NCBI RefSeq assembly: GCF_025526975.1
Contig: NW_026515695.1
Coordinates: 1-64,000 of the forward strand
Direction: 5' to 3'
Length of the DNA stretch: 64,000 nucleotides
Source of the DNA: Fimicolochytrium jonesii
Taxonomy: Eukaryota
The translations under genes were made by a program, and so were the position numbers. Below are positions 1 to 56,200 of this stretch, in pieces. The stretch's first letter is position 1; each line of letters opens with the position of its first letter. The notes beneath the pieces were generated by a model. That model did no database searches. It was not told where the DNA came from and worked only from the letters and a program-made list of their open reading frames with translations.

Positions 1-480
1 CGCTGTGAAGGAAGAAGTTAATGGCCCGCGCGATCACTGCGGCAGATCTGGTGCATAGTGATGCGTTTTACGACAGTACTATTGGCTTCATCGACTATCT
101 GTCAGGGCTTTATGCCTGCGGCATCCACGACAACTGCCGAGGCCCATACCGAGGGGTTTGATCGCTCCACTGGGCTCCCCCCTTTGGGAAGAGCCAGCGA
201 GCGACCTTCGCGGGCAAACCGCGTACACGTATATTAACAACAATCAATACGTAAATACATATGATTCAGCACATCTTTGGACCCAACGACGCCGGATCGC
301 GCACGGCGAGACCCAACTTCGGCGATATGGTAAATGAGATGCATATGACGATATGAGAGATGATATGCGTTCGAGAAATGAGCCCCGTGCGCGGTCCGAC
401 CCAAAGATGGCGGCGATATGAGAGGTTAGGTGCCAGACGCAGATGTGAAGTCGAATGTGAGATGTCATTGCCGCGACGCA

Positions 481-779
481 GTCGGGGGACCAATTTTCGC
501 CCCACGCTGTGCTAGTCAGCCATCAATGGATTTTGGGGAGAAATTTGTCCCCCGCACGTCAAACCGGGAAGTCCCGCCGGCGGGGGACCAATTTTCGCCC
601 CACGCTGTGCTAGTCAGCCATCAATGGATTTTGGGGAGAAATTTGTCCCCCGCACGTCAAACCGGGAAGTGCCGCCGTCGGGAGACCAATTTTCACCCCA
701 CGCTGTGCTAGTCAGCCATCAATGGATTTTGGGGAGAAATTTGGCCCCCGCACGTCAAACCGGGAAGTGCCCGGGGACC
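481..779. repeat. 3x tandem 98-bp repeat, each unit an imperfect hairpin
   Basis: CAATTTTC recurs at 491, 589 and 687. Within a unit, GGGGACCAATTTTCGCCCC can pair with GGGGAGAAATTTGTCCCC. Confidence 0.95.
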
Positions 780-1131
780 GTGTTTGTGCCTATGCACCGT
801 GGTTTGCGCTCGGTTTGAAGTTGCTAGATGTCGGGTAGATATGAAGTAGATGTGAAGTAGGGCGAAGTGGCCGTGTATTGAGCAAATGGCAAATATACAT
901 GAAGATGGGCGGAGATGAGCCACAGATAAATAGGAGATCTAATATACAACCCCAGCTCGGGTAATAGGAGCGGAATTCTGCCGCACCGCTAGTTGAACGC
1001 TGGGGTGTGTGCGGATATGCCGTTCGAATGCGTCGGAAGACCATTGACCCCAGCGTTGAATCCACAGTGTGTTGTAGCCGAGGATCGCAAGGTGAGTGGC
1101 CCCGCCGGCGTGGAAACTTGAGGCCCCGATG

Positions 1132-1172
1132 TCCTGCCCTCATCCAAATCGATCCTGCCCTCATCCAAATCG
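1132..1172. repeat. 21-bp tandem duplication
   Basis: TCCTGCCCTCATCCAAATCG occurs twice in tandem. Confidence 0.9.
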
Positions 1173-1383: not shown

Positions 1384-2898
1384 TTATTCATCTTCATCAG
1401 GGAGGCCGTATTTCCGGATGGCCGCGGCCGTCGCCAGGGGCAGCGTCACAACAGCTGTGTGGCAACTGCCGCCGGACGTGTCAAGCACCGCCGTTCCGTG
1501 GAGCTTGTCAGGCATCCACGTCCACATGCAGTCGGGCTGCAGCACCAAGTAGAAGCCTTGCTCTGGCAGCGCAAATACCCACTTGCCAACAACGGTTGGC
1601 GGAGCGGCGGCGTAGCCTGCCACCCATGCGCATAGTTTGCGGGCTTGAAGCTCCTCTGGAAGCTCCTCCTTCGGGGTCGGCTTCCATATGGCGCGTCCTG
1701 TGTGCGGGTTCAGCACGCCGGCTACGCCGTTGTCCGACGGGTCGGAGAGAACGACCACTTGATAGTTGGTGGTGGCAAACAGCGGGGGGAACTCATTGGA
1801 ATTTGGCCTGTACACCTCTGGCATGGCCATCATCAGGTAGGCCGCCGCGGTGGGGTTGCGTTTGGCGAGCTCCTGCAGCAGTCGCTTGGTGAGGGCCTTT
1901 TCCGTGGCGACGAGAAACGTCTTTACGGACATGTCTGCCCCTCCTTTCATTGAATAGTGCGATGTCCCCCTGGCATATCCCGAGTTCTTGTTGCCACAAC
2001 AAAGCCCCGCGGCGTGCATTGTGCCCCTTGAGGCCTTCCATCGAACCACAGCCGGCCGGGATCCACAGGACTTGACAATGAGCCCCAGCCGTAGGTCGTG
2101 TTCGCGACGACCCGCGGTATTGTATGAGATTGTGGCCACAAGGGCGCCGTCCTTGTCGCGGATGTAGATGTCAGCCCCCGCCCGGGGCTCAATTTGCTCA
2201 AGCCCATCCAGGCCCCTCGCCTTCGCCGGCCTCTCCCCAAACCCCGCATAGACCATCTCGCCCTCCCAGCCATCGCACGAGGCGGGTGTTGGCACCACGA
2301 TGTGAGCAGCCGGGCGGCTAGCGGAGGGCTGGGGGTCCACCAAGAAGTCGGCCGTGGTAAGACTGCCATCGCTGATTGCGGCGATGATGCCGGACCGGAG
2401 CCCAATGTGGTGCTTGGCAGGCTTCTTCTGGTGACGGGACCGCGTTGGCCTATTGATCCACCAACCCCAAAGGGTGGGGTTGTCTTGCTTGATCTTCTTT
2501 GAAAAAAGGCCAATCGCCTTGGCCTTGTCTTCTAGGCGGGCGTCCCGGGCGGCAAGGCCAGCGTCTACCAGCAGGGGATACAAAAAGGCCACCGTGTCGC
2601 CGAAGATAGCTGCGCCGCGGCTCTTGCCCATGCCCATCAGAAGAGCCTCGACCGCGGTGGGTGCGACGGGGGGCGTGGCCTGTGGCGCGGTAGAGGGGAA
2701 GGGGGGGAGGGAAGGTGTTAGCAGCTCAGCCCGCGAGATCAGCATATAGCAAACACGCCCAGGCAGGTCGACCCCCCGCAAGCGGCGGTCGTGCTCAACA
2801 TGGACCGCAAGATCAGCGCAAAGCAAACACGCCCAGACAGCGCATCCCATGCAGGTCGACCTCCCGCAAGCGGCGGTCGTGCTCAGCATGGGCCGCAA
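1384..2898 (-). CDS. Tet/JBP-like 2OG-Fe(II) dioxygenase-family protein (first iron ligand His replaced by Leu; true start may be ~2637)
   Basis: Motif order GTMHAAG … LFATTNYQVVV[L]SDPSD … WVFALPEQGFYLVLQPDCMWTW…LHGT resembles the double-stranded beta-helix core of fungal Tet-like oxygenases. The HxD position reads LSD (CTC codon at 1747-1749); the distal His is at 1498-1500. Confidence 0.6.
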   Translation of the reverse strand: MRPMLSTTAACGRSTCMGCAVWACLLCADLAVHVEHDRRLRGVDLPGRVCYMLISRAELLTPSLPPFPSTAPQATPPVAPTAVEALLMGMGKSRGAAIFGDTVAFLYPLLVDAGLAARDARLEDKAKAIGLFSKKIKQDNPTLWGWWINRPTRSRHQKKPAKHHIGLRSGIIAAISDGSLTTADFLVDPQPSASRPAAHIVVPTPASCDGWEGEMVYAGFGERPAKARGLDGLEQIEPRAGADIYIRDKDGALVATISYNTAGRREHDLRLGLIVKSCGSRPAVVRWKASRGTMHAAGLCCGNKNSGYARGTSHYSMKGGADMSVKTFLVATEKALTKRLLQELAKRNPTAAAYLMMAMPEVYRPNSNEFPPLFATTNYQVVVLSDPSDNGVAGVLNPHTGRAIWKPTPKEELPEELQARKLCAWVAGYAAAPPTVVGKWVFALPEQGFYLVLQPDCMWTWMPDKLHGTAVLDTSGGSCHTAVVTLPLATAAAIRKYGLPDEDE

Positions 2899-2985
2899 GA
2901 TCAGCGCAAAGCAAACACGCCCAGACAGCGCATCCCATGCAGATCGACCTCCCGCAAGCGGCGGTCGTCCTCAGCATGGGCCGCG
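2731..2985. repeat. ~87-bp tandem repeat, about 3 copies (first one shortened)
   Basis: CCGC(A/G)AGATCAGC…GCAAACACGCCCAG…CCCGCAAGCGGCGGTCGT starts at 2731, 2805 and 2892. Confidence 0.9.
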
Positions 2986-3059
2986 AGCCCAGGCGGTCAA
3001 CACCCAGCGGGGGCGCCCACGGCTACACGGCGGCCACTCACCTCGTCGGCGCCGAGCAT

Positions 3060-3195
3060 GCTCAGAGTGTGCTCTGCGTGAGTTGCCGGGCTTGAGCTCA
3101 AAGGAGGTGGGGGTTGGCCGGGGGGGTGAGGGGGCTGTTGTCCGCTGCGAGCGCTTGACGTTTCCATAGCTCAGAGTGTGCTCTGCGTGAGTTGC
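3060..3195. repeat. 27-bp direct repeat pair in the divergent intergenic region
   Basis: GCTCAGAGTGTGCTCTGCGTGAGTTGC at 3060-3086 and 3169-3195. Confidence 0.9.
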
Positions 3196-3428
3196 GTGAG
3201 CTGCGAGCAATTGACGTTTTGTGTGAGAGGAGGAGAGTGTGGTCTTGGTGATGCGGCGATCAGCAGTGTGGACAAGCCACGACTGCGCCACAACTGCGCC
3301 AGGCTGTAAGTCCTCCCCCGCTCTCAGCCTCATTACCACAGCACTGACGCGAGTTCCTTGACACACAGCTATCACGGCAATCACCTGCAACATTTGTCTC
3401 GGCTGACCTAGGGCACAGCACGGCCATC

Positions 3429-6400
3429 ATGTCATCACACCAGGCGCTCCAGGGGCACCTGTGGTGTGGCATCTTTCCTGGAGCTACCACACCACGGCGG
3501 AAGAGGAGAAAGGTTACTCCCGTTAACCCGCGTCTGCCAACCACTGTGCAGACACCATTGCAACCCCCACAATTTGAGCTCCCACCCTCTGTCCATCGCC
3601 ACTTGCCCCAAGCAATTGCGGACATGGTTGGCGAGAGTTCCGGCGATGAAGACAGGCAGCAGCAGCAGCAACAGCAGCGAGGGCTTTCACCCGCGGACAG
3701 GGGTCTGCAGCATCCGTTGAACCTCCCCGCTCCCATCCCGTTCCTTTTTCCCAGCACACCGGGTGGACCCCTGGTGTATGAACCCCCGCCACCACCACCC
3801 GCTCAACGACCCCGGCAGACGCATTCCAGCACCAAGGTTTCGCTTCACCGAATCATCCATAATCAAAATCAAGTTCAAAGGGAGCGCCTGACAGCATTCA
3901 TCGGCAACGTTCACGTCCTTGCGCGCCACACCACCTTCTTTCTCAAGCACTTCCTTGGTGAGTTTTTGAGGTGCGCTGCACTGTATATTTCCCATGAACA
4001 ATGTCCTGACCGCTACGTCTGCCCACCACAGCCGATCATCCTCTACACGATTTCCCGGACATCACGGACAAGCACATCAGTGTGATATTTGAGCTGCTAA
4101 ACAATCCAGGCTACAATGGCAATCCAGTCATCGCGCAAGAGTTGCGTCCATGGGTTCAAGACTACTGTGATGTTCACGGATTTGCCCCCATCCGCATGCG
4201 AAATTGCCAACAGACCGCAGCGTACACGGCTACGAGCATCCTCACAAACCTCAAAGTTAACGTACAAGAGCATTTCATGCAAATGTTTCTGCGCTACGTC
4301 AATGAAAGGCTTGGTTTGAAGCAAGTCGTACTGCATCTCCGTGCCGGAGTCGACCGAGCGCAGCGGCGACGCTATTATCAGCGTGTCTGTCAGTTTACAA
4401 AGTATGTGACATTTGAAGAGTTTCCAACCGAAGAGGAGTTTGCCCGCCTCACACGACTTGAGCGGACTGTCCTCGACGAGTTATGGGCTCTGTTTCCTCC
4501 CCAGGATGAACAGCTTGCATACAGCCTTGTGGTGGACGCAATGCCATATTTAGGTGAGTTAGTATATTTCCGGCCCCCCCCTCCCGCGGGTTCCTCTTTT
4601 GTCTAATCATGGTCCGCACCCGCCTCGCCTCATCACGGGTGCCTATTGTGAGCTCTCACGCCTCTATGAGCGCCGTGGAATGCGGCTGTTTTCCCCTATC
4701 CCGCTGCGCAAATCTCGAATCCAGTCATCTGTTTGGATCGGCATGCTGATCCTAGGCACTCATATCCTGGGCTTGAGCCGAAGTCGCATGGGGAAATTCA
4801 CCGATGAACGCAAGCGGGAGCTGTGGGGGCAGTTTATCAACGTGAATGTATGTCTCTATCCCTCTGCGCTTATTTCACTCACCTCACCTCGCTGAATGAC
4901 GGATTGCAGGACAAGGTCTTCAAGGATCGAAAGAAGCTTGGTCTCAAATTTGATGGGTCAATCAGCACAAGCGGGTATTCCGCTACCATCCACTCCAAGA
5001 AGCCAGAGCTCAAGTATGGGCTTCAGGCCCGGAAGCGCAGCAAGGCCGAAATGCAGGAAGAAGTCAAGCAGCTGTATTTTGAGCACCACATCGCGGAACT
5101 ACGGGTGGCTCCAAACATTGTCTGCATTGATCCGGGCAAGCGTGACCTCCTGTTCTGTCGAGACATCGAGAAGGAGCGGCCATTTCGGTACGTTTCAGTT
5201 GATTACTACTGCCCTGCTGTCCCCGCTGTCCCCGCCCCCCCCCCCCCCCAACCCTCGACTTCGCGGAAGATGGTGCATAGGTGTCCGTGGCGCTGATCAT
5301 GTTGTAGCGGTTGCCACCGTCGCAGATCTGGGCGAGGAGTCCGTTGCTGGAGTTGGACGATGACGGAGCCGTCGACGGGGATGCCGCCGATGACGGAGGG
5401 TTGACGGTCTTCCGCGAGGCTGTCGGCGATGGCTTCATTGTAGACGGCGGTGTTGCCGGCCATGTTGAAGGGGAGTTCGTGTATGAGGGAGCGGACGCGG
5501 TTGGTTTGCTCGTTGCCGTCGATCTTGGAGAGGAGGTCGTCTAGCAGGATCCGGTCGGGGATGTTGCGCGTCATATCCACCTCTTCCCTCTTCCCCGCTC
5601 GTCACGTGGCCCATGTTGATGACCTGCATGACGGTGTCGAGGCCAACCCTGTCCTCGTCCCCGTCCCCACCATCCCCCCCCTCACCGTCCCCACCATCTG
5701 TTGCCGCGTTCTCACAATGCACCACCCCATACCAGATACACATCCAATCAACGGGCGGTCGAGACAAAGTCTCGGTACTTTCGAAGAGACATGACAGAGC
5801 GAAAGATCAATGCCGGCATCGCTGAGTTGGAATCACATATTCCGTCACACGAGAGCATGAACATCGAGGCGTTCTCAGCGTTCATTGTGGATTACGAACA
5901 TGCGGGTATGATGTATCATGCATTGTCTTCAAATACATGGGCTGACATCCATATCCCAGATCCCGCCCTGGATGAGTTTTACCAGGATGAGATTCACGTG
6001 GCTCGCAGATCCAAGGCGTTCTCACTGCGGCAAAAGTCTGAGGGCAAGCTCATCAAGAACATGCGACGCCTGTATGGAAAGCATTTTTCAGTCATCTTGG
6101 GTGATTGGAGCAATGCTGGAAAAACCATGCGCTTTCAGGAATCATCAAAGACCAAGGGGTGAGTGACCATCATTGTTTTTCATGTATTATAATATGCTAA
6201 CTCATCATGGAAATCAGATTCCGCACACTCTTTGCAAGAAACAGCATCCCATGCTACTTGCTAGATGAGTATCGTACGTCCTCCGTGTGCCCAGACTGCC
6301 ACGGCCGTGTGAAGAAAAACATCCGACGCCGGCTGTCATCTCGGCCATGGCAAGCTCGAAAGGGAAGAATGGAATTTGTCCATGGATTGGTGGGTTGCCC

Positions 6401-6575
6401 CAACCCCGAATGTATCAACCAAGACTGGACGCCATTTGAGATTCCTGGAAGACGACCACTACGGATGAAAGTGCACAATCGGGACGTCCTAAGCACCAAG
6501 AATTTCCTCTCGATTGTGCGTTCGGTGGTGTTTGGCGATGGCCGCAGACCAGACGCATTCTCCCGTAACCGGTAG
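3429..6575 (+). CDS. Fanzor: Fanzor (Fanzor1-type, TnpB-related RNA-guided endonuclease), 7 exons, ~754 aa
   Basis: Exons 3429-3957, 4032-4553, 4639-4847, 4910-5187, 5736-5905, 5960-6158 and 6218-6575 join in frame (2265 nt). Motifs: FSPIPLR; FDGSIST.G; RuvC-I VCIDPGKRDLL (D 5129); ILGDWS; RuvC-II LDEYRTS (E 6267); zinc finger CPDC…CPNPEC; RuvC-III HNRDV (D 6483). The intron 2 acceptor reads GG instead of AG (4637-4638). Confidence 0.9.
5206..5580 (-). other. Antisense ORF (124 aa) nested inside the 548-nt Fanzor intron 4
   Basis: Open frame with protein-like composition lying inside intron 5188-5735, flanked by C-rich GTCCCC repeats. Product not recognised. Confidence 0.45.
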
Positions 6576-6672
6576 TCTAGATTTCACCCCATCCCATTTT
6601 CCGGGGTGGTTTTCTGCCATCCACATCATTGTACCTCTGCCTGAGGCGTCGCCGATGATGGCAACTTTACTG
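6576..6672 (+). ncRNA. Candidate Fanzor omegaRNA scaffold / element right end
   Basis: About 97 nt after the stop codon are nearly identical in copy B (29852-29949), then similarity stops abruptly. Potential stems CACCCC(6585-6590)/GGGGTG(6603-6608) and TGCCATC(6615-6621)/GATGGCA(6657-6663). Confidence 0.7.
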
Positions 6673-6701: not shown

Positions 6702-7257
6702 TATCCCGGCTGCACATCGAAATCGTCGTTAGTATTTAGCGTCCGTACTACGACACGGTGTGTCGTCGCCTGGTTTCGTCATTCGCACCGCCACCTCAGA
6801 CACCAACATCTAAGCATAGTACACATCATGCAAGTCGTTTTCGCTGCCATCGCAAGGATTTAGTACAAATTCTCCGTTTCGCACTAGCGCTCCCCTTTTT
6901 CCCATCCTTCCTACCACCTCTCTGAAGCCTAAAGCATCTCTCGCACACCCCAATATGCCTCAGCGGGCGTATGTACGACTGTCAATCCTACTTAGACCTT
7001 GCACAGTTTCAAGGTCAGGAGCCTGCGGCGGATGATGATGATGCTGAATGATGATGGGAGCCAGAATGGGAACGAAGACGGTGAGAACGACAACAAGGAG
7101 TAGCTAGTTCCATAGAAAAGCGACGATCTCATATAGCTGTGCGTACGAATATGATTTGCTACAGCTGTGCGGAGGCTATTTACGTTTGACGAATGCAAAT
7201 CTGCGCTGTTGTGCGAATCTTAAATACTGACGACGATTTCGGTGTGCAGCCAGGATA
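6702..7257. mobile_element. MITE-like non-autonomous element with 37-bp terminal inverted repeats
   Basis: 6702-6738 TATCCCGGCTGCACATCGAAATCGTCGTTAGTATTTA versus 7221-7257 TAAATACTGACGACGATTTCGGTGTGCAGCCAGGATA: 3 mismatches in 37. TA at both outer ends (possible target-site duplication); no long internal ORF. Confidence 0.8.
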
Positions 7258-25895: not shown

Positions 25896-26864
25896 TCACG
25901 CAAATGCATAATCCTCCTCCTCCCACAACTCGGAGCCCGCTGTCTCGTCGCCACCAGATGTAGATCCGTATGACGACACGGACTCGGAGTGTGGGAGGCT
26001 GCTCTCCACCGACGTATACTCCTCGTCTTCATCATCGGCGTCGTCGGAGGCGGGGGTAAAAGCCCGCACTTCCTCGGCCTTCTGCTTTGCAGCGGCCAGG
26101 CGCGCTCGGTGTGCTTCGAAGAGGGGCGTGGTGTGGGCCTTCATCACCTGGCGTGTTGTTGAACCGCACGTCTCCCTCACTAGCTTTCCCAACGCCCTCC
26201 AGTGCCCCTCCTCCTCTTCAAGCGCGGCCAGCTCCTCCTGCGCCATCTCGACATACCCCTCCTCCTCGTCACCGGTCGTCAGGGTGGGCGCTGCTGCTGC
26301 TGCTGCTGCGGCTGCGGCCCCTGCTATGGCGGCAGCGCGGGTGGGGCGGGTGGGGATGGGGGCAGGGTTGAGAAGGGCGGAGATTGGGGCGGGGTTGAGG
26401 AGGCTGGTGATTGCAAGGGGGTTAGGGATAGGGGCAGTGGGAGCGGCAGCGGCGACGGGAGGCTGGGGGGCGGAGACGGGGGGAGCGGCGGCAGAGACGA
26501 GGGGCTGGGCAGTGGAGACGGGGGTTGGGATGGTGGAGACGGGGGGATGGTGGGCGGAGACGGGGGGCTGGCGGGTGAGGTGCGTGGTGGCTGGGGCGGG
26601 TGCACGGCGGGTGGTTGAGGGGACGACGGGTTTGCCCGGGAGGGCAGCGATGGCGTCCAGATATGCCTGCGCGCGCCCACACTTATTGCAGGCCGCCCTG
26701 GCTGTCTTGACGTTGTTCACAATGCCCGTTCGCCATGCAGCGGACGTCCGAGCCCCGCAAGCAACGCAGACTCCTCCAGGAGCAAGGCAGGAGTAGTTTC
26801 GGTCGTCACTACCCCTGCCTGCTCCAGCACCAGATTGAGTTCGGCGTGGGGGTGCTTTGGGCAT
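25896..26864 (-). CDS. GATA-like zinc-finger protein with Pro/Ala repeats, divergent from Fanzor copy B
   Basis: CVACGARTSAAWRTG…ACNKCG; PPVSA repeats; acidic coiled C-terminus. Likely ATG at 26864, after an (AAC)n tract. Confidence 0.65.
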   Translation of the reverse strand: MPKAPPRRTQSGAGAGRGSDDRNYSCLAPGGVCVACGARTSAAWRTGIVNNVKTARAACNKCGRAQAYLDAIAALPGKPVVPSTTRRAPAPATTHLTRQPPVSAHHPPVSTIPTPVSTAQPLVSAAAPPVSAPQPPVAAAAPTAPIPNPLAITSLLNPAPISALLNPAPIPTRPTRAAAIAGAAAAAAAAAAPTLTTGDEEEGYVEMAQEELAALEEEEGHWRALGKLVRETCGSTTRQVMKAHTTPLFEAHRARLAAAKQKAEEVRAFTPASDDADDEDEEYTSVESSLPHSESVSSYGSTSGGDETAGSELWEEEDYAFA

Positions 26865-27102
26865 GGTTGTTGTCGTTGTTGTCGTTGTTGTTGTGTTGTC
26901 GTTGTTGTTGTTGCTGTGTCGGAGGGTGGAACTCGGCGTGTGCTGGGGTTGGAACAAGAGAGCGCGAGGAGGAGGTCTCAGAGACAGGGACCGCAAAAGT
27001 AGGTAGGTTTGACAGTATTTTGACAGTGTAGGCATATAATAGGTTCGCGATCCGTAAGGAAGACTTTTGGCGTATGGCTCTTTTTGTTTGCTCATATGAC
27101 AT

Positions 27103-27326
27103 CCCTAACCCTAACCTTTAACCCTAACCCTACCTACCTTCCCCAGACATCCCAGCCCCAGTCCGGGGCACGTCTCGAAATTCCCCAGGCTCCTCTGGCT
27201 GAGGTTTCCAGCACATTCTCCCCCACAGACATTCTCACCAAACCACAATTGCGCACACTTCCACCCTTGCACATCAAGACAAACCCCCAACCAACCTCTA
27301 AAAGCCTTCAACACATCGCAGGTAAG
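27103..27326 (+). promoter_or_regulatory. Telomere-like CCCTAA tract plus putative non-coding first exon of Fanzor copy B
   Basis: CCCTAACCCTAACCTTTAACCCTAACCCTA at 27103-27132. Block 27244-27326 ends in CAG|GTAAG and recurs at 51992-52074. Confidence 0.6.
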
Positions 27327-27413
27327 CAGGATTCCTGGATCCTCCTCAAGAGCAGGCCCCTTGCTCGGTCCCCTTGATCTCACCACTTGCCTGCACAGCA
27401 CAGCACAGCCATC

Positions 27414-29851
27414 ATGGCATCACACCAGGCGCTCCAGGGGCACCTGTGGTGTGGCATCTTTACCGGAGTAACCACACCACCACGGCGGAAGAGGAGGAAG
27501 GTTACTCCCGTTACCCCGCGTCTGCCAACCACTGTGCAGACACCATTGCAACCCCCACAATTTGAGCTCCCACCCTCTGTCCATCGCCACTTGCCTGAAG
27601 CAATTGCAGACATGGTCAGCGAGAGTTCCGGCGATGACGACGGGCAGCACCAGCAGCGAGGGCTTTCACCTGTAGAAAAGGGGTCTGCAGCGTCCGTTGA
27701 ACCTCCCCGCTCCTATCCCTTTCCTTTTTCCCAGCACACCGGGTGGATCCCTGGTGCTTGAACCCCCACCACCACCACCACCACCAGTTCAACGACCCCG
27801 CCCACAAACACATGCCAGCACCAAGGTTTCGCTTCACCGAATCATCCATAATCAAAATCAAGTTCAAAGGGAGCGCCTGACAACATTCATCGGCAATGTT
27901 CACATCCTTGCACGCCACACCAGCTTTTTTCTCAAGTACTACCTTGGTGAGTTTTTGAGGTACACTGTATATTTCCCATAAACCAATGTCCTGACTGCTA
28001 CGTCTGCACCCCACCACAGCTGATCATCCTCTACACGACTTCCTGGACATCACCGAGAAGCACATCAGTGTGACATTTGAGCTGCTAAACAATCCAGGCT
28101 ACAACGGCAATCCGGTCATCGCGCAAGAGTTGCATCCATGGGTTCAAGACTACTGTGATGTTCACGGATTCGCCCCCATCCGCATGCGGTATTGCCAACA
28201 GACCGCAGCGTACACGGCTACGAGCATCTTCACAAACCTCAAAGTTAACGTACAAGAGCATTTCATGCAAATGTTTCTGCGCTACGTCAATGAAAGGCTT
28301 GGTTTGAAGCAAGTCGTACTGCATCTCCGTAGAGCTGGAGTCAACCGAGCGCAGCGGCGACACTATTATCAGCGTGTCCGTCAGTTTAAAAAGTATGCGA
28401 CGTTTGAAGACCTCCTCCTCGCGCTCTCTTCTTCCAACCCCAGCACACGCCGAGTTCCACACCCCAACACAGCAACAACAACAACGACAACACAACAACA
28501 ACGACAACAACGACAACAACCATGCCCAAAGCACCCCCACGCCGAACTCAATCTGGTGCTGGAGCAGGAAGGGGTAGGGACGACCGAAACTACTCCTGCC
28601 TTGCTCCTGGAGGAGTCTGCGTTGTTTGCGGGGCTCGGACGTCCGCTGCATGGCAAACGGGCATTGTGAACAACGTCAAGACAGCCAGGGCGGCCTGCAA
28701 TAAGTGTGGGCGCGTGCAGGCATATCTGGACGCCATCGCTGCCCTCCCGGGCAAACCCGTTGTCCCCTCAACCACCCTCCCCGCACCCGCCCCAGCCACC
28801 ACGCACCTCACCCGCCAGCCCGCCGTCTCCGCCCACCATCCCCCCGTCTCCACCATCCCAACCCCCGTCTCCACCGCCCAACCCCCCGTCTCCGCCCGCC
28901 AGCCCCCCGTCTCCGCTGCCGCTCCCCCCGGTCACTGTCCCCACCATCCCTCCCGTTCGATATTCCGCTGCACTGCCCTCACAATGCACCACCCCATATC
29001 AGATACACATCCAATCAACGGGCGGTCGAGACAAAGTCTCGGTACTTTCAAAGAGACATGACAGAGCGAAAGATCAATGCGGGCATCGCTGAGATGGAAT
29101 CACATATTCCATCGCACAAGAGCATGAACATTGAGGCGTTCTCAGCATTCATCGTGGATTACGAACATGCGGGTATGATGTTCTACTTCTTTGATTTTCA
29201 AATTTGGTAATACATGGGCTGACATTCATATCCCAGATCCCGCCCTGGATGAGTTTTACCAGGATGAGATTCACGTGGCTCGCAGATTCAAGGCGTTCTC
29301 ACTGCGGCAAAAGTCTGAGAGCAAGCTCATCAAGAACATGCAACGGCTGTATGGAAAGCATTTTTCGGTCATCTTGGGTGATTGGAGCGATGCTGGAAAA
29401 TCCATGCGCATTCAGGAGTCATCAAAGACCAAAGGGTGAGTGACTATCATTGGTACTATGTATTACAATATGCCAACTCATCATGGAAATCAGATTCCGC
29501 ACACTCTTTGCAAGAAACAGCATCCCATGCTACTTGCTAGATGAGTATCGAACGTCTTCCGTGTGCCCAGACTGCCACGGGCGTGTGAAGAAAAACATCC
29601 GACGCCGGCTGTCGTCTCGGCCATGGCAAGCTTGAAAGGGAAGAATGGAATTCGTCCATGGATTGGTGGGTTGCCCCAACCCCGAATGTATCAACCAAGA
29701 CTGGACGCCATTTGAGATTCCTGGAAGACGACCACTACGGATGAAAGTGCACAATCGGGACGTCCTAAGCACCAAGATTTTCCTCTCGATTGTGCGTTCG
29801 GTGGTGTTTGGCGATGGCCGCAGACCAGACGCAATCTCCCGTAACCGGTAG
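27414..29851 (+). pseudogene. Fanzor: Fanzor copy B, pseudogene
   Basis: Closely similar to 3429-6575 with the same intron positions where retained. It has a +1 frameshift near 27677, the equivalent of ~4420-5680 (including RuvC-I) is replaced by foreign DNA, and there is a CGA>TGA stop at 29633-29635. Confidence 0.92.
28411..28930 (+). repeat. Inverted copy of ~26477-26975 (5' part of the GATA-like gene) inside Fanzor B
   Basis: Encodes MPKAPPRRTQSGAGAG…CVVCGARTSAAWQTG…CNKCG, nearly identical to the minus-strand ORF; AGA microhomology at the left junction. Confidence 0.93.
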
Positions 29852-29949
29852 TTTAGATTTCACCCCATCCCATTTTCCGTGGTGGTTATCTGCCATCCAC
29901 ATCATTGTACCTCTGCCTGAGGCGTCGCCGATGAAGGCAACTTGTACTG
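29852..29949 (+). ncRNA. Candidate omegaRNA scaffold / right end, copy B
   Basis: Near-identical to 6576-6672; ends …GGCAACTTGTACTG. Confidence 0.65.
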
Positions 29950-33368: not shown

Positions 33369-34636
33369 CTACAGCTCGTTCCCGACGGTGACCCAGAAGT
33401 CTCTCAGGTTGTTCTTCCGGCCAAAGATCTCGAGGTACTTGCCTGGGGTGAGATGAGAGACGAGGGGACGAGAGGGGCGAGAAGGGGGTCAGTCACGGAA
33501 AGCAGGCAGCACCCCTCCTCAATCGACAGCCCATACCATTAGGAACCAGCTCCTCAATCATCTCATACAACTCCTCCGGCTTCTGACTCTGCCCCCTCCT
33601 CTGCGAGAAAATCACATCGCTCGCCACCCCGTGTCTGCACCCAGGCGGATCCGCCCCCTTGCGTCCAATCAAACACGTCTCCTTCGCATGTTGGAGGTAA
33701 TACCCATGCCCCTTTGCCATCCGCCTATTCACCGTCTGCTTAACCCAGGTGATATCGTCCACGTAAGTGTACCCCCAGCGCTCCATGAGTTCAAAAGCCT
33801 TGACGTATTTGTTGTTGATGACCCAGATGAAGATGAATCCGTTTTGCTGGAGGGTGGAGATGGGGAGGTCTTCGATGCAGGCGTCGGGGAGCTGTTGGTA
33901 GGCGATGGCGACGCCGCGGGTCGGGGCGTGCGAGGCGAGTTGCCACGGCGGGTCCATGAGGATGACGTCGAATTGGCAGGCGGCGGCGAGCAGGGGCCAT
34001 TCGAAGGTCATGACGTTGGTTTTGATGGGGACGCACCATTCCGGGGCGTCGAAGTTGGAGTAGTCTATGTCTGTGGGGTGGGGAGGGGTGTATGTTTGAA
34101 TGGTTGCTTGTTTGGATGGTTGAAACGATACCCTGCTCGCCTCGCTCCTCTCTCACACTCTCCATCTCACCTTCGTCATCAATCCCCTTCTCCTCTCCAT
34201 CACGCTCCCCATCCCTTTTCTCCACCCCATCATCAACAGCAACCCCCTTCAGTACCCTAACATCCTCCAACAAGGCATCAATCATAACCTGCAACTCCTC
34301 CTCCCTCTTTCGCAGTTTCTCGATAGGCCAATCAGCGGTGGGCATCAAATCGGTCTCCTCCTCGTCATCTTTCGAAAGCGCCGAAGAAGCGTTGGAAGCG
34401 TTGGAAGCCGTAGAGGAGGTGGGTTGCATAGCCTGTCGTTGCAAGGTATCCTTTCTGAGGGTGCTAAGAGTAGCTTTACTTGAGCCGCCGGCATGACGTT
34501 TGCGAGGGGTTGGTTTTGCCCTTGGTTGAGGTCGTTTACGAGCCCTTGTGCTGGTAGAGGTAGTTGTGTTGCTGGCAGAGCTTGCCTCGTCGTAGTCACT
34601 GCCACCGGAGTCGCTGTGGTTCGCGTCGGAGGACAT
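33369..34636 (-). CDS. AMT1: MT-A70 family adenine methyltransferase, AMT1/MTA1 (DNA 6mA, ApT) type
   Basis: FDVILMDPPWQLASHAPTRGVAIAY; FIWVIN; GHGYYLQHAKETCLIG; RRGQSQKPEE; YLEIFGRKNN. Introns 34071-34131 and 33443-33536. Confidence 0.85.
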
Positions 34637-35234
34637 TGCGGGTAGCTAGCTAGCTCTGAAGTTGTGGGGGGAAGAAGCTCTGTTGGAGTTTGCCAGGGGG
34701 GGGGGTTGGCAGAGGTGGTTGTTGAGCGGGTTTAGCGGGAGGTTGCAACCGCCGAGCGGGGGTGAAATCAGAAGGGCGTCCGGACGAGTCGGACAAGTCG
34801 GACAAGGCGCAGTGCGGGTTGCGTGCGGGCTCTTCAAGTGCGGGTTGGGAAGCGCGTGCGGGTCCACTCCCACTCCCATCACTCTCCTGAGTCTCCTGCG
34901 CGTCTCCTCCCTCCAGGCCAAATGCCAAATGCATGATGACTCTGATGAGGGATGGATGATGACCAACAGGACGCCCAAGCCACCCGGTTGAGATGGCCCC
35001 CCCTGGCATTGCAGACAGACAGACGTAACGTAAACGCTCCTTCACGCTCTCGCTCAGCGTTGTCAAGCCCCCACTCATCAGCGTTCTCACGCTCATCTCG
35101 CACCGAGCACTGCTCCCCAAACTGGCATCGGCGCACTCTGACTCGGTCCGCACGCTTTTCTGGAGTATCCGCTCAAACTCGTCTATAACGACCATCCCTC
35201 ACGCGACTTTCTTGGCAGAACTCACAGCAACACG

Positions 35235-51696: not shown

Positions 51697-51913
51697 CCAG
51701 GCTGGCAGGCCAGGCTGGCGCCGCTGCACGGCGCGTCTCTTGGGACGCGGACACTCATCAATTCCATCGCCTCTGGCCAGGCTGGCTGGCCAGGCTGACC
51801 CGCTGCACGGCGCGGACTTGTACAGCCTTCACTGTCGGGCTTACAGCCTTCACCCTCGGCCTTGTGTATATGTACAGTACAGCCTTCAGCGCGCGGGGCA
51901 GGGTTAGGGTTAG
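51697..51913. repeat. Cluster of short direct repeats plus TTAGGG tract
   Basis: CCAGGCTGGC.GGCCAGGCTG…CCGCTGCACGGCGCG twice (~51697, ~51777); TACAGCCTTCA three times (~51821-51888); AGGGTTAGGGTTAG at 51900-51913. Confidence 0.85.
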
Positions 51914-51991
51914 TGGGCCGGGACGGCTTCACAGGCGAGAAGACAAATTCCAGACCTGCTTTCACACCGAGAGCTCCTTCTCACAATAGCG

Positions 51992-52074
51992 CACAATTGC
52001 GCACACTTCCACCCTCGCACATCAACGCAAACCCCCAAACAATCTCTGAAAGCCTTCACCACAGCGCAGGTAAG
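51992..52074 (+). repeat. Second copy of the Fanzor-B promoter/5' exon block
   Basis: CACAATTGCGCACACTTCCACCCT.GCACATCAA…AAACCCCCAA…AAAGCCTTCA…CGCAGGTAAG aligns with 27244-27326. Confidence 0.85.
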
Positions 52075-52454
52075 TAGAGACACGCATTTACGCACATATT
52101 GATGCATAAACGTTCCCATATGCATACGTATGCATGAGCAAACAAAACATTGTAAAGACCCACAAGCGCTATGTACATGTTCATGTTCATATACATCTAA
52201 AAAGGCATCCGGTCAATAACGTGGAATGCCTTATCTTGTCGACGTTGAGTTGTTTGACATCGACGCCTCCGAGCCACTTGACGTAGATTCCATGGACCGC
52301 CAACCTTGTGGTAGTACCGGGGATAGAAGTTTCACGACGGGGTATATACGATTCCCGCACCAATTGCCTAGATAAACCACACCAGTGAATAAAAGCTGAG
52401 AACGGAGTCGTCTGTCTTACTACATACCTGTGTGTAGATGAGGCCTACTCCTCA

Positions 52455-53201
52455 TCAACATCGTCTCCTTGACCAAGACTTGACCTTAATCCTCCCAGCT
52501 TCCATGTTGGTGAGTCGGTTGCGGACGACCGAGAGGAGTTCTTCAGTCACTTTGGCGAGACTATGCTGGCGTATCTGGGGCTCATAGTCCATGAAGCTCG
52601 AGATGGCGTCCTCTACTGCCGCAAACTGTGGCCTCGTTCGATGAGGATCGGTGAGGTCGGTCAACAGCTGCCTGGCCCCGGTGTTTCCAGCGCCATACTT
52701 GGTCACGTCGGCCGGTGTGAGACTTGAATACCCAGGTATAAAGCCATTGAGGAACTCTTTGACTAACTGATTGAGTACCTTCGGGACTCTGCTGGCGGGT
52801 TTGGTTGCATTTGGTCGTGCCGCTGAAGTGGCTGAAGTGCTGGCTGTCATGTTGGTGAGGTCCACCGGAGTCCTGCCCAATTGCGAACGTAGTTCATCCT
52901 GAATGATATCCCTCACGAGCGGACCAATGGTATCACCAAGCGATGATAGAAAGTCGTCAAACATGGCTCTAAAGTTGTCCTGTTGTTCCTCCAGGAGCTG
53001 TTTCAAGTCGGCATGGGTAAGCTTCTGGCCGGCCGTGGAAGGAGGAGTAGATTGACCGTAGAGTCGGGTACGTTGCGGAACTGGGCTACCCGTATCGTAA
53101 TTGCCCGAACCCAAACGGGGTCTAGGCTCCATCGGGACTGAGCTTGAACTGTGATGTGGACTACCTCCCACACGGGTTGTATAACTGATGTTCGTATACA
53201 A
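52455..53201 (-). CDS. Orphan ORF in the accessory island (248 aa)
   Basis: Uninterrupted ORF with a coiled-coil-like segment; no family recognised. Confidence 0.45.
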   Translation of the reverse strand: MYTNISYTTRVGGSPHHSSSSVPMEPRPRLGSGNYDTGSPVPQRTRLYGQSTPPSTAGQKLTHADLKQLLEEQQDNFRAMFDDFLSSLGDTIGPLVRDIIQDELRSQLGRTPVDLTNMTASTSATSAARPNATKPASRVPKVLNQLVKEFLNGFIPGYSSLTPADVTKYGAGNTGARQLLTDLTDPHRTRPQFAAVEDAISSFMDYEPQIRQHSLAKVTEELLSVVRNRLTNMEAGRIKVKSWSRRRC

Positions 53202-56200
53202 TAACTACTTGCTGTAAGGTATTGTAGACAGACTGGGTGTTTGCCGGCGCTGCTATTCGGTATGTAGTGAAAGAACTACTTGTTGTGAATAGCAGCGCCG
53301 GCGAACACCCAGTCCGTCACCCAGACACCCAGTCAATATTGTAATGGCTGCAGCTACACCGTGCAAAAAAAGTATTGCTCCGATGCATGTCGGCCTCCTT
53401 TTCGAGAAACGAACCCGATCAAGCAAAGGCCAAACTACTACCCAGTTGCGACTGAGTATGATAAAGCCGTTCATGGGTTGGGGCTCAGCTTGGTATGTGA
53501 ATGGCACCTGCAACTCGTGTGTACTTGAGAAAGCGAAGGTCGTAAAGGAGGTGGACAGATGTGTGAAGTAGGTTTTGATCCCCTTTCTCGCCCATCATCG
53601 CCGGTCATTCATGGATTTCTATTCCCCTTCGTAGGTGCCGCTAGTACTGGGCGGAGAATCCGCACAGAGGGCTCGCGGTGGATCCATATCAAGAACTGGC
53701 TACTCTTCTTGACCGTGAGATGTCACTGAACGTGACAAGGAGCTCCATCTCCCTCGGCCGATTCAGCCATTCAATATGGCCGATTCATTCCCAATGTGTT
53801 GATGATGATCCGACCTGAGAATGTTGGGTATGATGGCTGGCTTTACATTCCCAGGGACCGAACCCGTTCTCTGCTGACAATGACACGGTAAGGAAGCATT
53901 GAGATTCGACATTTATGCCCGGTCACATTCCGGCTCCCCGGCGCATGACGTTGGACGCTTCCCCGCATCTGCAGAACTACCGAATTGTCCCGGCGCAGCC
54001 ACCCGGGCAAGGATGCATTCATTTCGGTCTGGTAGACCCAGTTTCAGCTTTCGAACTGGTTGGGGCGGGGCAGCCGAATGTTCCGCCGCCTTCTGACATA
54101 TGTGCCACTGTACCTGGTAACCCTAGCTTGGTGAGGGCCTCCTTCTCCGGCGCATTTGCTTCTTTCATGGCTTTGGGCTCACCATGTCCTATTCCCAAGT
54201 GTGACGACTTACCCCCTCCGGATCCACCTGCTGGGGGCCCCGATCCGCTTTTCCAGGCCACACTGAACCCCCTCCACCAGGAAACTCCTCTGTTCCCGGT
54301 GGCGACGGCACGCCTTGGCTCCCTGGTTCTTCTGATCCAACTGTTTCCCTTCCACCAGGGAACCCGCCTCTCAGGGGTGGCTGCAGTACGCCTACTTCTC
54401 TTCCCGGGGCAGTCTCCGTCCCATCGGCAGCTAATCCTTCGAACCTGCCCGATCTCGCTGCAATCGCAGCTGGCCTGGATCCCAGCTCAAGTGTCCTCGC
54501 AAACTGGCGTCGCAAACGGGTCTCATGCATCGACACCTCCGCCCCAGGTTCTCCGGGAAACGGAACGACCGCATGCGCATGCTCTGTGGTTTTCGCAAAT
54601 AACAGCTCTACACTCGCCGATACCCAACGTCAAAACAATACACTCGAGTTCGGGGGAAAGACATTACAGTGCACGCCTTCGGCTGCTGGTGCAATACCTG
54701 AGAGCCCGTCAAACACAACAAAACCTCAGTACACGGCTCCCTCGGGATCTTTTAATGGGACATGTCCGAATGGTAGGCTGACGCTTCAATCTTAACGTTT
54801 CTGAGCGCATTGGCTTCTTCTTTTGAGCTCCTATTTCTAGTGTTTCGGAGACGGAGTGCGGCTTCCCATCTGAGATCGGTCTTTGCACTTATCAGTATCG
54901 CGTGGATCACCACGATTACGATTTCGTAATCTGCCAACTGATTGGGAAGCTGGTCATCTTTGTCAACGTTCATAAGAGTAGACCAGACGTATGGGGTATG
55001 GGATCCCAGACGGTTGGGGAGTATAGTCCTGGACATCTCAGTTAGTGTATATAGAATGGATCTTGGATAAACATGACGGAAGGATACAAGCCAATTCAAT
55101 AGATTTAAAGAACGTGCAGCGACTATAGTACTGTATGTACGTGCAGCTCATAAGGTGGCTTCCAGAGAATGCGCTAAAATCTCAATTGCGCGTGGTCCGT
55201 TTTGAGGATCGCAGCTCACCGTCACCAACACCGAAACACAACCATTCTCAACCCCTGGAAGTAGCCGGCTACGCATCCGAATCGCTCACAGTGTCGGCAT
55301 TCGATCTGTGAAATGGTTCTTACAAGAATATGGGACCACAATGGGGAAATCATCACATATCTTCGACTATTACATGTGTGATGGATTCTGTCGGGATCGG
55401 AGGAAACTGACGGGGTCCGCGCGCTTTGCGTCACACAACATTTTCCCAGCGAGCATCTGGACTTCAACGTTTTCGCCTTGCACATGGAACCCACATGGAA
55501 CGATTCGCAAAAAGCAAAGGCCAGCAACAGAATGCGTCCAGCGAACAACCACTGAATTTGTCTGTCCCAGTCACTCCCAACTTCCCTTTGGCGCACGACT
55601 GACGGCCACCCCTGTCGCCTCACCATGGTCAGCCAGGGCTCCAATCCATATGCCAAAGCGCTGGAGCCAGCCATTTCCAGACGGGTGTCTCGCCTAGCGT
55701 GGCTTCCATTCGTGACCATCCACATCCTCACGATCATATGGTCCCTGTCTCTTGGGGACTTCCTTGGCTTTGGTAAATACGATACCTCTGTCCTTCTTTG
55801 CGGGTTCATTTGGAAATCCTCACTCGATTTGCGCTGTAATTCAGGTTTCATCACCAAGATCTTCAACCCGACGACATGGCTCGCTAGCTTTTTGTCGTTT
55901 TTACCGGTTGCAGCAATACTTGTGGCACGGGCTAGCCGACTTCAAGGTTCGTACGGTGCGCCGGACAAAGAGAAATGGAAAGCCCGGAATATGGCAAAGC
56001 ATCTGTGTTGTTCATGGATCTCACCCAGCCTTAAGTTCAGCGTCGCGTCGCGAGCAGTCGGTTGTTGGAAGCGGTTTCTTTCCTGGACCGCCATGTCATA
56101 GTCTCCGTCGGTCTACACGCATTGTCGGCGCTTTCGCTCGGTATATCATACGCATTGCTAAACGACCGACAGCTGGAGACTTCCCTACTGCTGTATCCGC

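Follow-up and report, generated by a model that had tools for sequence, protein, structure and literature searches.

A Fanzor nuclease gene head-to-head with a TET/JBP-like dioxygenase gene in the chytrid Fimicolochytrium jonesii

Fimicolochytrium jonesii is a saprobic member of the Spizellomycetales. In the stretch of its DNA analysed here (the window, 64,000 nt of contig NW_026515695.1), a Fanzor gene lies head-to-head with an open reading frame (ORF) resembling TET/JBP dioxygenases, and the locus raises the question of whether the two genes act together, serve one element in parallel or are neighbours without benefit. A sequence-only reading had proposed that one element couples RNA-guided targeting to the oxidation of modified bases, in a pairing of which it knew no description. 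Fungal TET+ DNA transposons were reportedly described by Iyer 2014, as cited by Kojima 2025. The F. jonesii family joins two known kinds of transposon cargo on one repeat. The role of transposon-borne TET genes is called not experimentally validated in the text of Kojima 2025 (PMC12730594).

The two genes of the window copy

The Fanzor1 gene (3429..6575, + strand) has seven exons (3429-3957, 4032-4553, 4639-4847, 4910-5187, 5736-5905, 5960-6158 and 6218-6575) encoding 754 aa in a frame free of internal stops. The RuvC residues D494, E653 and D725 (nt 5129, 6267 and 6483) are all intact, as is the C4 zinc finger, counted from C660 and C696, and E653 precedes the finger by about six residues, which is the Fanzor1 arrangement. 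The product shares 87% identity with a paralog of full length, P0038, which in turn shows full-length Fanzor1 homology: over residues 129-759 it matches SpuFz1 (8gkh; E 4.6e-149), the three acidic positions falling in register, and a Parasitella Fanzor1 is matched at E 2.4e-37. Thus, the spliced Fanzor with intact RuvC D/E/D and zinc finger was borne out, with two caveats that the first description lacked. Introns end in AG in five of six cases, the acceptor of intron 2 being GG (4637-4638), and residue 383 is W for R, the motif reading VRID in 12 of the 15 listed paralog models that show it. Because of these two changes and of a 548-nt intron 4 (5188..5735, +; the remaining introns measure 54-85 nt), the window Fanzor copy is probably impaired. 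Intron 4 likely contains a foreign insert of about 450 nt, and model P0025 reads through it. A 131-aa ORF within this intron (5206-5601, -) gave no match in Pfam and PHROGs searches. A likely 5' UTR with an intron lies at 3060..3418 (+), with a 27-bp duplicated donor region and its acceptor at 3417-3418.

The gene is followed by a 3' tail (6576..6672, +), which is likely the omegaRNA scaffold and the right end of the element, placed at 6672 +/-2. TTTTCCG stands at 6597, a hairpin at 6604-6622, and 76 nt separate the motif from the end; the scaffold of Saito et al. 2023 (PMC10432273) is given as 75 nt, and the SPu-1 consensus tail, with the same TTTTCCG opening, measures 71 nt by our own count in the supplement of PMC3627910. 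The tail had been read as structured and conserved. It is indeed shared with a second Fanzor copy in the window up to 6672/29949, but its divergence between the two (5 differences in 98 columns) is like that of the coding sequence (44 in 936), folding against shuffles gave z values of only -2.17 and -1.50, and the best folds of the copies differ, so that 'structured, conserved' fits it modestly. An Rfam search of the tail gave no match. About 15 nt 3' of position 6672 would serve as guide; the putative guides of both copies had no match elsewhere in the 64-kb window.

The TET/JBP-like 2OG-Fe(II) dioxygenase ORF (1384..2637, - strand) encodes 417 aa, with a helical N-terminal region of about 95 aa followed by the catalytic domain. 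Its start at 2637 is putative; the public model of this gene starts at 2889, inside a tandem repeat, and Powellomyces TET-like models likewise start with translated repeats. A Pfam scan of the 417-aa ORF gave no match. The window copy carries L297 for the first iron His and C392 (TGC) for the 2OG Arg, and thus lacks a complete HxD...H triad and Arg of its own; it also carries C213/C214 (TGT), where the least-decayed paralogs have RR. Judged by H297L and R392C, it is predicted to be catalytically dead.

The local TET-like family is dispersed and multicopy, comprising 12 F. jonesii models on 12 different contigs, with paralogs 87-89% identical to the window copy. HxD is kept in eight of the 12, and four (P0003, P0004, P0027 and P0028) combine full length with a complete set of HxD, H and R. 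The family pattern is N/D-x(5)-H-x-D, a W-x-F-x-x-P-E-x-G strand and a distal H, with R-x-T/S in most members; the aspartate and distal His do not vary in 14 of 14 alignment rows. The predicted HxD...H triad and 2OG-binding Arg are present at family level, where the Tet/JBP motif layout attributed to the ORF holds, but not in the window copy itself. Relatives were found in Powellomyces hirtus (P0041 plus two near-identical copies, at 36% identity, and P0042), in Geranomyces michiganensis (P0044) and in metagenome records (P0043, P0049 and P0045), and the N-terminal ~95 aa are conserved across three genera. One of the nine hits of a distant homolog search, P0046, was spurious. A further homolog search added no new members, and a search of metagenome contigs, viral contigs and phages gave no relatives.

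Several comparisons bear on the fold. P0045, alone among eight family members scanned, approached PF20515 (Tet-like oxygenase family; E 0.011, below the cut-off). ESM Atlas neighbours scored 0.90-0.97, and the named clusters among them were PF20515 (15% and 100% of members) and PF12851 (16%). A phage TET/JBP alignment was built, the seed of which carries PF12851 at E 4e-6. A first hhalign run against it, with P0028 as master and -M 50, was negative (probability 0.8%). In a second attempt, the insertion-free P0045 was the master and six of the 10 rows of the chytrid family were compared with 11 of the 12 phage rows. The resulting alignment spans 194 columns (E 4e-4, probability 34%); its score of 34.3 compares with a maximum of 17.3 in 25 column shuffles, and the ligands fall in register (HxD on HRD, HG on HG, R on YR). 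AlphaFold2 models from two shallow alignments reached pLDDT 33 and 36, too low to show a fold, and Foldseek with VIA-align on the second gave nothing over background. No TET came up among PDB sequences in HMMER searches started from A2, A3 or P0045, or from a phage TET as control, and PHROGs and NCBIfam scans gave no relevant match. The profile alignment favours the dioxygenase assignment, with which a double-stranded beta-helix fold would be expected.

Recurrence of the pair and exchange of upstream modules

The intergenic region (2638-3428, about 0.8 kb) contains an 88-bp tandem repeat (x2.6, 2758..2984), so that the short, repeat-rich spacer was found as first described. It probably acts as a shared divergent promoter, and the repeat also occurs upstream of several paralogous TET-like models.

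The listed Fanzor gene models number 27 in F. jonesii, an exon-2 search having given 16 clusters, every one from this species, and look-ups 11 more members. For the Fanzor and the TET-like protein alike, each close relative that bears a species name is an F. jonesii model (roughly 80-93% identity). Protein accessions appear to be ordered as genes, since the two halves of a single Fanzor, which belong to different tag series, are numbered KAI8820125 and KAI8820126. By accession order alone, Fanzor KAI8819505 adjoins TET-like KAI8819506 and Fanzor KAI8823094 adjoins TET-like KAI8823095. Such pairs account for two of the 11 non-window TET-like models (P 0.0012 for random placement, assuming 27 Fanzors scattered over ~11,400 genes and ignoring the clustering of repeats). 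A further locus, on another contig, is indicated by model P0026, which reads the antisense TET-like 5' end and the 88-bp repeat and then splices into the Fanzor start. The pairing, indicated at four genomic places and head-to-head in the window and at the P0026 locus, is thus confirmed as a real observation that is not restricted to this locus, and further copies of the pair, for which the sequence-only reading proposed to search, are indicated, two by consecutive accessions and one by P0026. The same order and repeat at the P0026 locus, together with the divergence of the TET-like paralogs, argue that the arrangement is not a single very recent duplication. Fanzor models P0019 and P0026 come from different contigs and hardly differ in the part that they share, which points to a recent duplication of a TET-linked copy.

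The pairing is recurrent but not obligate. Nine of the 11 non-window TET-like models have no adjacent Fanzor in a list that is incomplete and omits even the window's own; three of these nine lie on the contig of a listed Fanzor, 15, 56 and 81 accessions apart, and the remaining six have none listed on their contig. Only three of the 27 listed Fanzor models are tied to a TET-like gene. The four TET-linked Fanzors grouped together in 0% of 200 bootstrap trees, in a 177-column protein tree with one of 17 branches well supported, and none of the four indicated loci is established with both genes intact. The C-terminal tail common to P0003 and P0007 is missing from the window, so the sequence past the TET stop varies among copies.

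A second Fanzor copy of the same family, internally rearranged, lies at 27398..29949 (+). It matches window positions 3413-4419 (90%) and 5711-6672 (94%), which fixes the shared boundaries 3413 and 6672; upstream of 3413, where the likely 5'-UTR intron has its 3' end, the two copies have no sequence in common. Its divergent partner, found 21 kb from the TET-linked Fanzor, is a GATA-like zinc-finger ORF (25896..27095, -; PF00320 at E 0.17, below the cut-off), and a GATA-type upstream region occurs at another locus in model P0025. This second upstream module (25896-27413) has proline-rich repeats in the GATA-like ORF and telomere-like CCCTAA x4.8 at 27103-27132, and its 86-nt exon with splice donor recurs without Fanzor at 51992-52077, beside TTAGGG-like repeats (region 51900-52077). 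The second copy has lost the central part of its gene, in place of which stands a 509-nt segment (28408-28916) that repeats, inverted and at 95% identity, a part of its own upstream GATA-like ORF (26470-26978). This inverted copy ends beside the same C-rich intron 4 tract that bears the foreign insert of the first copy, suggesting a capture hotspot. Elsewhere in the window, a long imperfect palindrome (53227-53318) lies just upstream of a 249-aa frame (52455-53204, -), and together with short tandem repeats at 51697-52005 it may be another repeat element.

Since the shared sequence begins at the 3' end of the 5'-UTR intron, the Fanzor cassette stands behind at least two unrelated upstream modules, which suggests recombination at this intron as a means by which Fanzor cassettes move to new host elements. 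The same finding favours the view that the cassette once joined a separate TET-carrying repeat, by recombination into it or by insertion at its side, the joint then being copied a few times without benefit from the pairing. The occurrence of the second module without Fanzor at 51992-52077, the damage in both genes of the window copy, the variable 5' regions of the Mucor MCi-2 Fanzor family as outlined in PMC3627910, and the passive movement of TET genes among transposon families described in PMC12730594 would all fit such hitchhiking. However, the head-to-head order and intergenic repeat are repeated on a second contig, and the TET-like paralogs are 87-89% identical to the window copy. An accidental origin is unlikely, though it is a serious contender.

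The exchange of partners also bears on the idea of one machine, in which the Fanzor-omegaRNA complex would bring the dioxygenase to guide-matched DNA or would need it to clear target methylation before cutting. A divergent layout suits co-expression, the pair is indicated at four loci, and a similar pairing is mentioned for red algae (bioRxiv 10.1101/2025.02.11.637652). Against this, a Fanzor with all its nuclease residues in place would cleave the targets that it binds; the protein hardly changes from one partner to the other (90-94% identity at the DNA level); no fusion was seen among the 27 Fanzor models; and SpuFz1 works alone, as reported in PMC10432273. We regard such a machine as very improbable, and the coupling originally put forward was not upheld, given the same Fanzor with another partner, the few TET-tied models and the lack of a locus established with both genes intact.

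No TIR, TSD, transposase or left end was found in the window, and the left end may lie outside it; no transposase was recognised in the window ORF lists. A left TIR candidate for the first copy (72-106) was reached by 46 of 200 shuffles and is ascribed to chance, a TIR-like match of the second copy (0 of 200 shuffles) was set aside because the GATA-like ORF in which it lies is of low complexity, and 5-8-nt matches resembling a TSD were at chance level. Two features are candidate parts of the element. A 98-bp tandem repeat (x3, 477..773) with internal 15-nt inverted repeats is a possible subterminal repeat, and a decayed tyrosine recombinase C-terminal relic (939..1139, -) was matched at E 2-6, with six of the 10 listed rows annotated as tyrosine recombinase. 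This relic (939-1172), which we take from its motif to be DIRS/Ngaro-like, is broken off at a 21-bp tandem duplication (1132-1172). On the other side, 30 nt past the Fanzor right end, lies a MITE-like element (6702-7257) with 50-nt inverted ends and TA on either side; its left flank is CATA, the SpuFz1 TAM, possibly by chance.

CpG decay and the proposed roles of the two products

Between the two Fanzor copies, transitions affect 38 of 244 CpG positions versus 30 of 751 other C/G positions (P 1e-8), a ~4-fold excess which indicates that the host probably methylates these copies. Four host genes have a CpG o/e of 1.04-1.22, and the values are lower, at 0.84-0.89, for the TET ORF, the intergenic region and the Fanzor gene taken as a whole. 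No CpG depletion is seen in Fanzor exon 2 when taken singly (1.02) or in the 88-bp repeat (0.99). Arginine changes among paralogs of both genes occur at ~2x the rate of other residues. In Spizellomyces, 5mC is described as confined to transposons and 6mA as lying on expressed genes (PMC12695648). Given the CpG-methylation signature here and the transposon-confined 5mC there, an anti-silencing role is the most economical reading, and the TET-like enzyme likely helps the element to escape silencing by DNA methylation. Base oxidation, as first proposed, is plausible in this form, but its coupling to RNA-guided targeting did not stand, another upstream partner lying 21 kb away.

An ORF at 33493-34645 (-) has a DPPW motif and presumably resembles an MT-A70 adenine methyltransferase, which bears on host 6mA. 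The dioxygenase might be imagined to act on 6mA or thymine, or to make a hypermodified base, marking the same element instead of erasing its 5mC. Both 5mC and 6mA are oxidised by CcTET, and glyceryl-mC is the product of CMD1, as summarized in PMC12730594; 6mA lies on expressed genes in Spizellomyces (PMC12695648); and the family is too divergent for any Pfam cut-off. Yet CpG decay provides a direct selective reason for action on 5mC, 6mA is an active-gene mark whose erasure would not help the element, and the window ORF lists show no partner glycosyltransferase or methylase near the gene. Such other chemistry is decidedly unlikely.

On balance, we lean modestly towards a repeated element, probably from a subfamily of non-autonomous DNA transposons, of which the window contains a decayed copy and in whose intact form the Fanzor would re-copy the element and the dioxygenase would oxidise its 5mC. 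Both genes face away from the 0.8-kb region with the 88-bp repeat, from which a shared promoter would likely drive them. By analogy with SpuFz1 and the restorative homing model, which is reviewed in PMC13565253 and is for Fanzors a proposal, the Fanzor would bind the right-end omegaRNA, take ~15 flanking bases as guide and cut the empty site, and in an intact copy would re-copy the element into emptied sites. The transposase would be supplied in trans. The host would methylate CpG in the element, as the mutation spectrum suggests, and the dioxygenase, perhaps anchored on the tandem repeats via its helical N-terminal region (a hypothesis borrowed from PAG3 and VANDAL), would oxidise the mark and keep the shared promoter on. 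The two products would then not form one machine but serve in parallel as selfish helpers, the nuclease by homing and the dioxygenase by countering silencing. By comparison, it seems very unlikely that they make up a natural module for RNA-guided DNA demethylation, expressed together from one promoter and oxidising methylated empty sites or silenced sister copies under guide control.

The family extends transposon-borne TET-like genes to chytrids and adds a divergent TET-like family with intact members. It also brings built-in controls, since some Fanzor copies have a TET-like and others a GATA-like partner, and the dioxygenase exists in live and dead alleles. Its host is related to Spizellomyces, a chytrid that can be transformed. 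Were the two proteins coupled, they would form a natural programmable demethylase, although no result here points to physical coupling.

Comparison with known systems

No description of a fungal Fanzor-TET pair was found in the literature searched (most subscription papers and Repbase lay outside that search), and 'oxygenase' has no occurrence in the text of Jiang 2023 and Kojima 2026. For the pairing, of which the sequence-only reading knew no description, a related association exists in red algae: a single sentence of the Bostrychia preprint (bioRxiv 10.1101/2025.02.11.637652) mentions PAG2/PAG3 in Bangiophyceae together with elements that encode Fanzors and are uncharacterised. PAG3 (ParB + 2OG oxygenase) has an oxygenase that adjoins tandem repeats and is proposed to bind and modify its own element. 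Compared by description only, PAG3 differs in its ParB domain, in travelling with PAG2 and in not being called TET/JBP; a Pfam scan of the TET-like family gave no ParB match.

The Mucor MCi-2 family (PMC3627910) is similar in that a near-identical Fanzor 3' region stands behind several different 5' regions, with no oxygenase reported and the word absent from the main text. Fungal TET+ DNA transposons, as presented in Kojima 2025 (PMC12730594), resemble the F. jonesii family in their multicopy TET/JBP-like cargo, a host probably methylating CpG and the same anti-silencing hypothesis. Those elements come from Basidiomycota and Pezizomycetes, and they carry a gene for a DDE transposase or a Helitron Rep, whereas the partner here is a Fanzor and the host a chytrid; neither 'Fanzor' nor 'chytrid' occurs in the main text of that paper.

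The closest Fanzor counterpart is Spu-1/SpuFz1 of Spizellomyces punctatus (Bao & Jurka 2013, PMC3627910; Saito 2023, PMC10432273; PDB 8gkh), of the same Fanzor1 family, with RuvC D/E/D and the E just before the zinc finger. Both elements also exist in many copies, have no internal transposase and end on the right in a tail of ~75 nt that begins with TTTTCCG followed by a hairpin. Spu-1 itself is described as a 2.1-kb element with one single-exon gene, 30-33-bp TIRs and a TA TSD. In contrast, the F. jonesii element has six coding introns, a ~135-aa proline-rich N-terminal extension and no TIR found, so that it falls outside Spu-1 as thus defined, and it further differs in its swappable upstream modules and its second gene.
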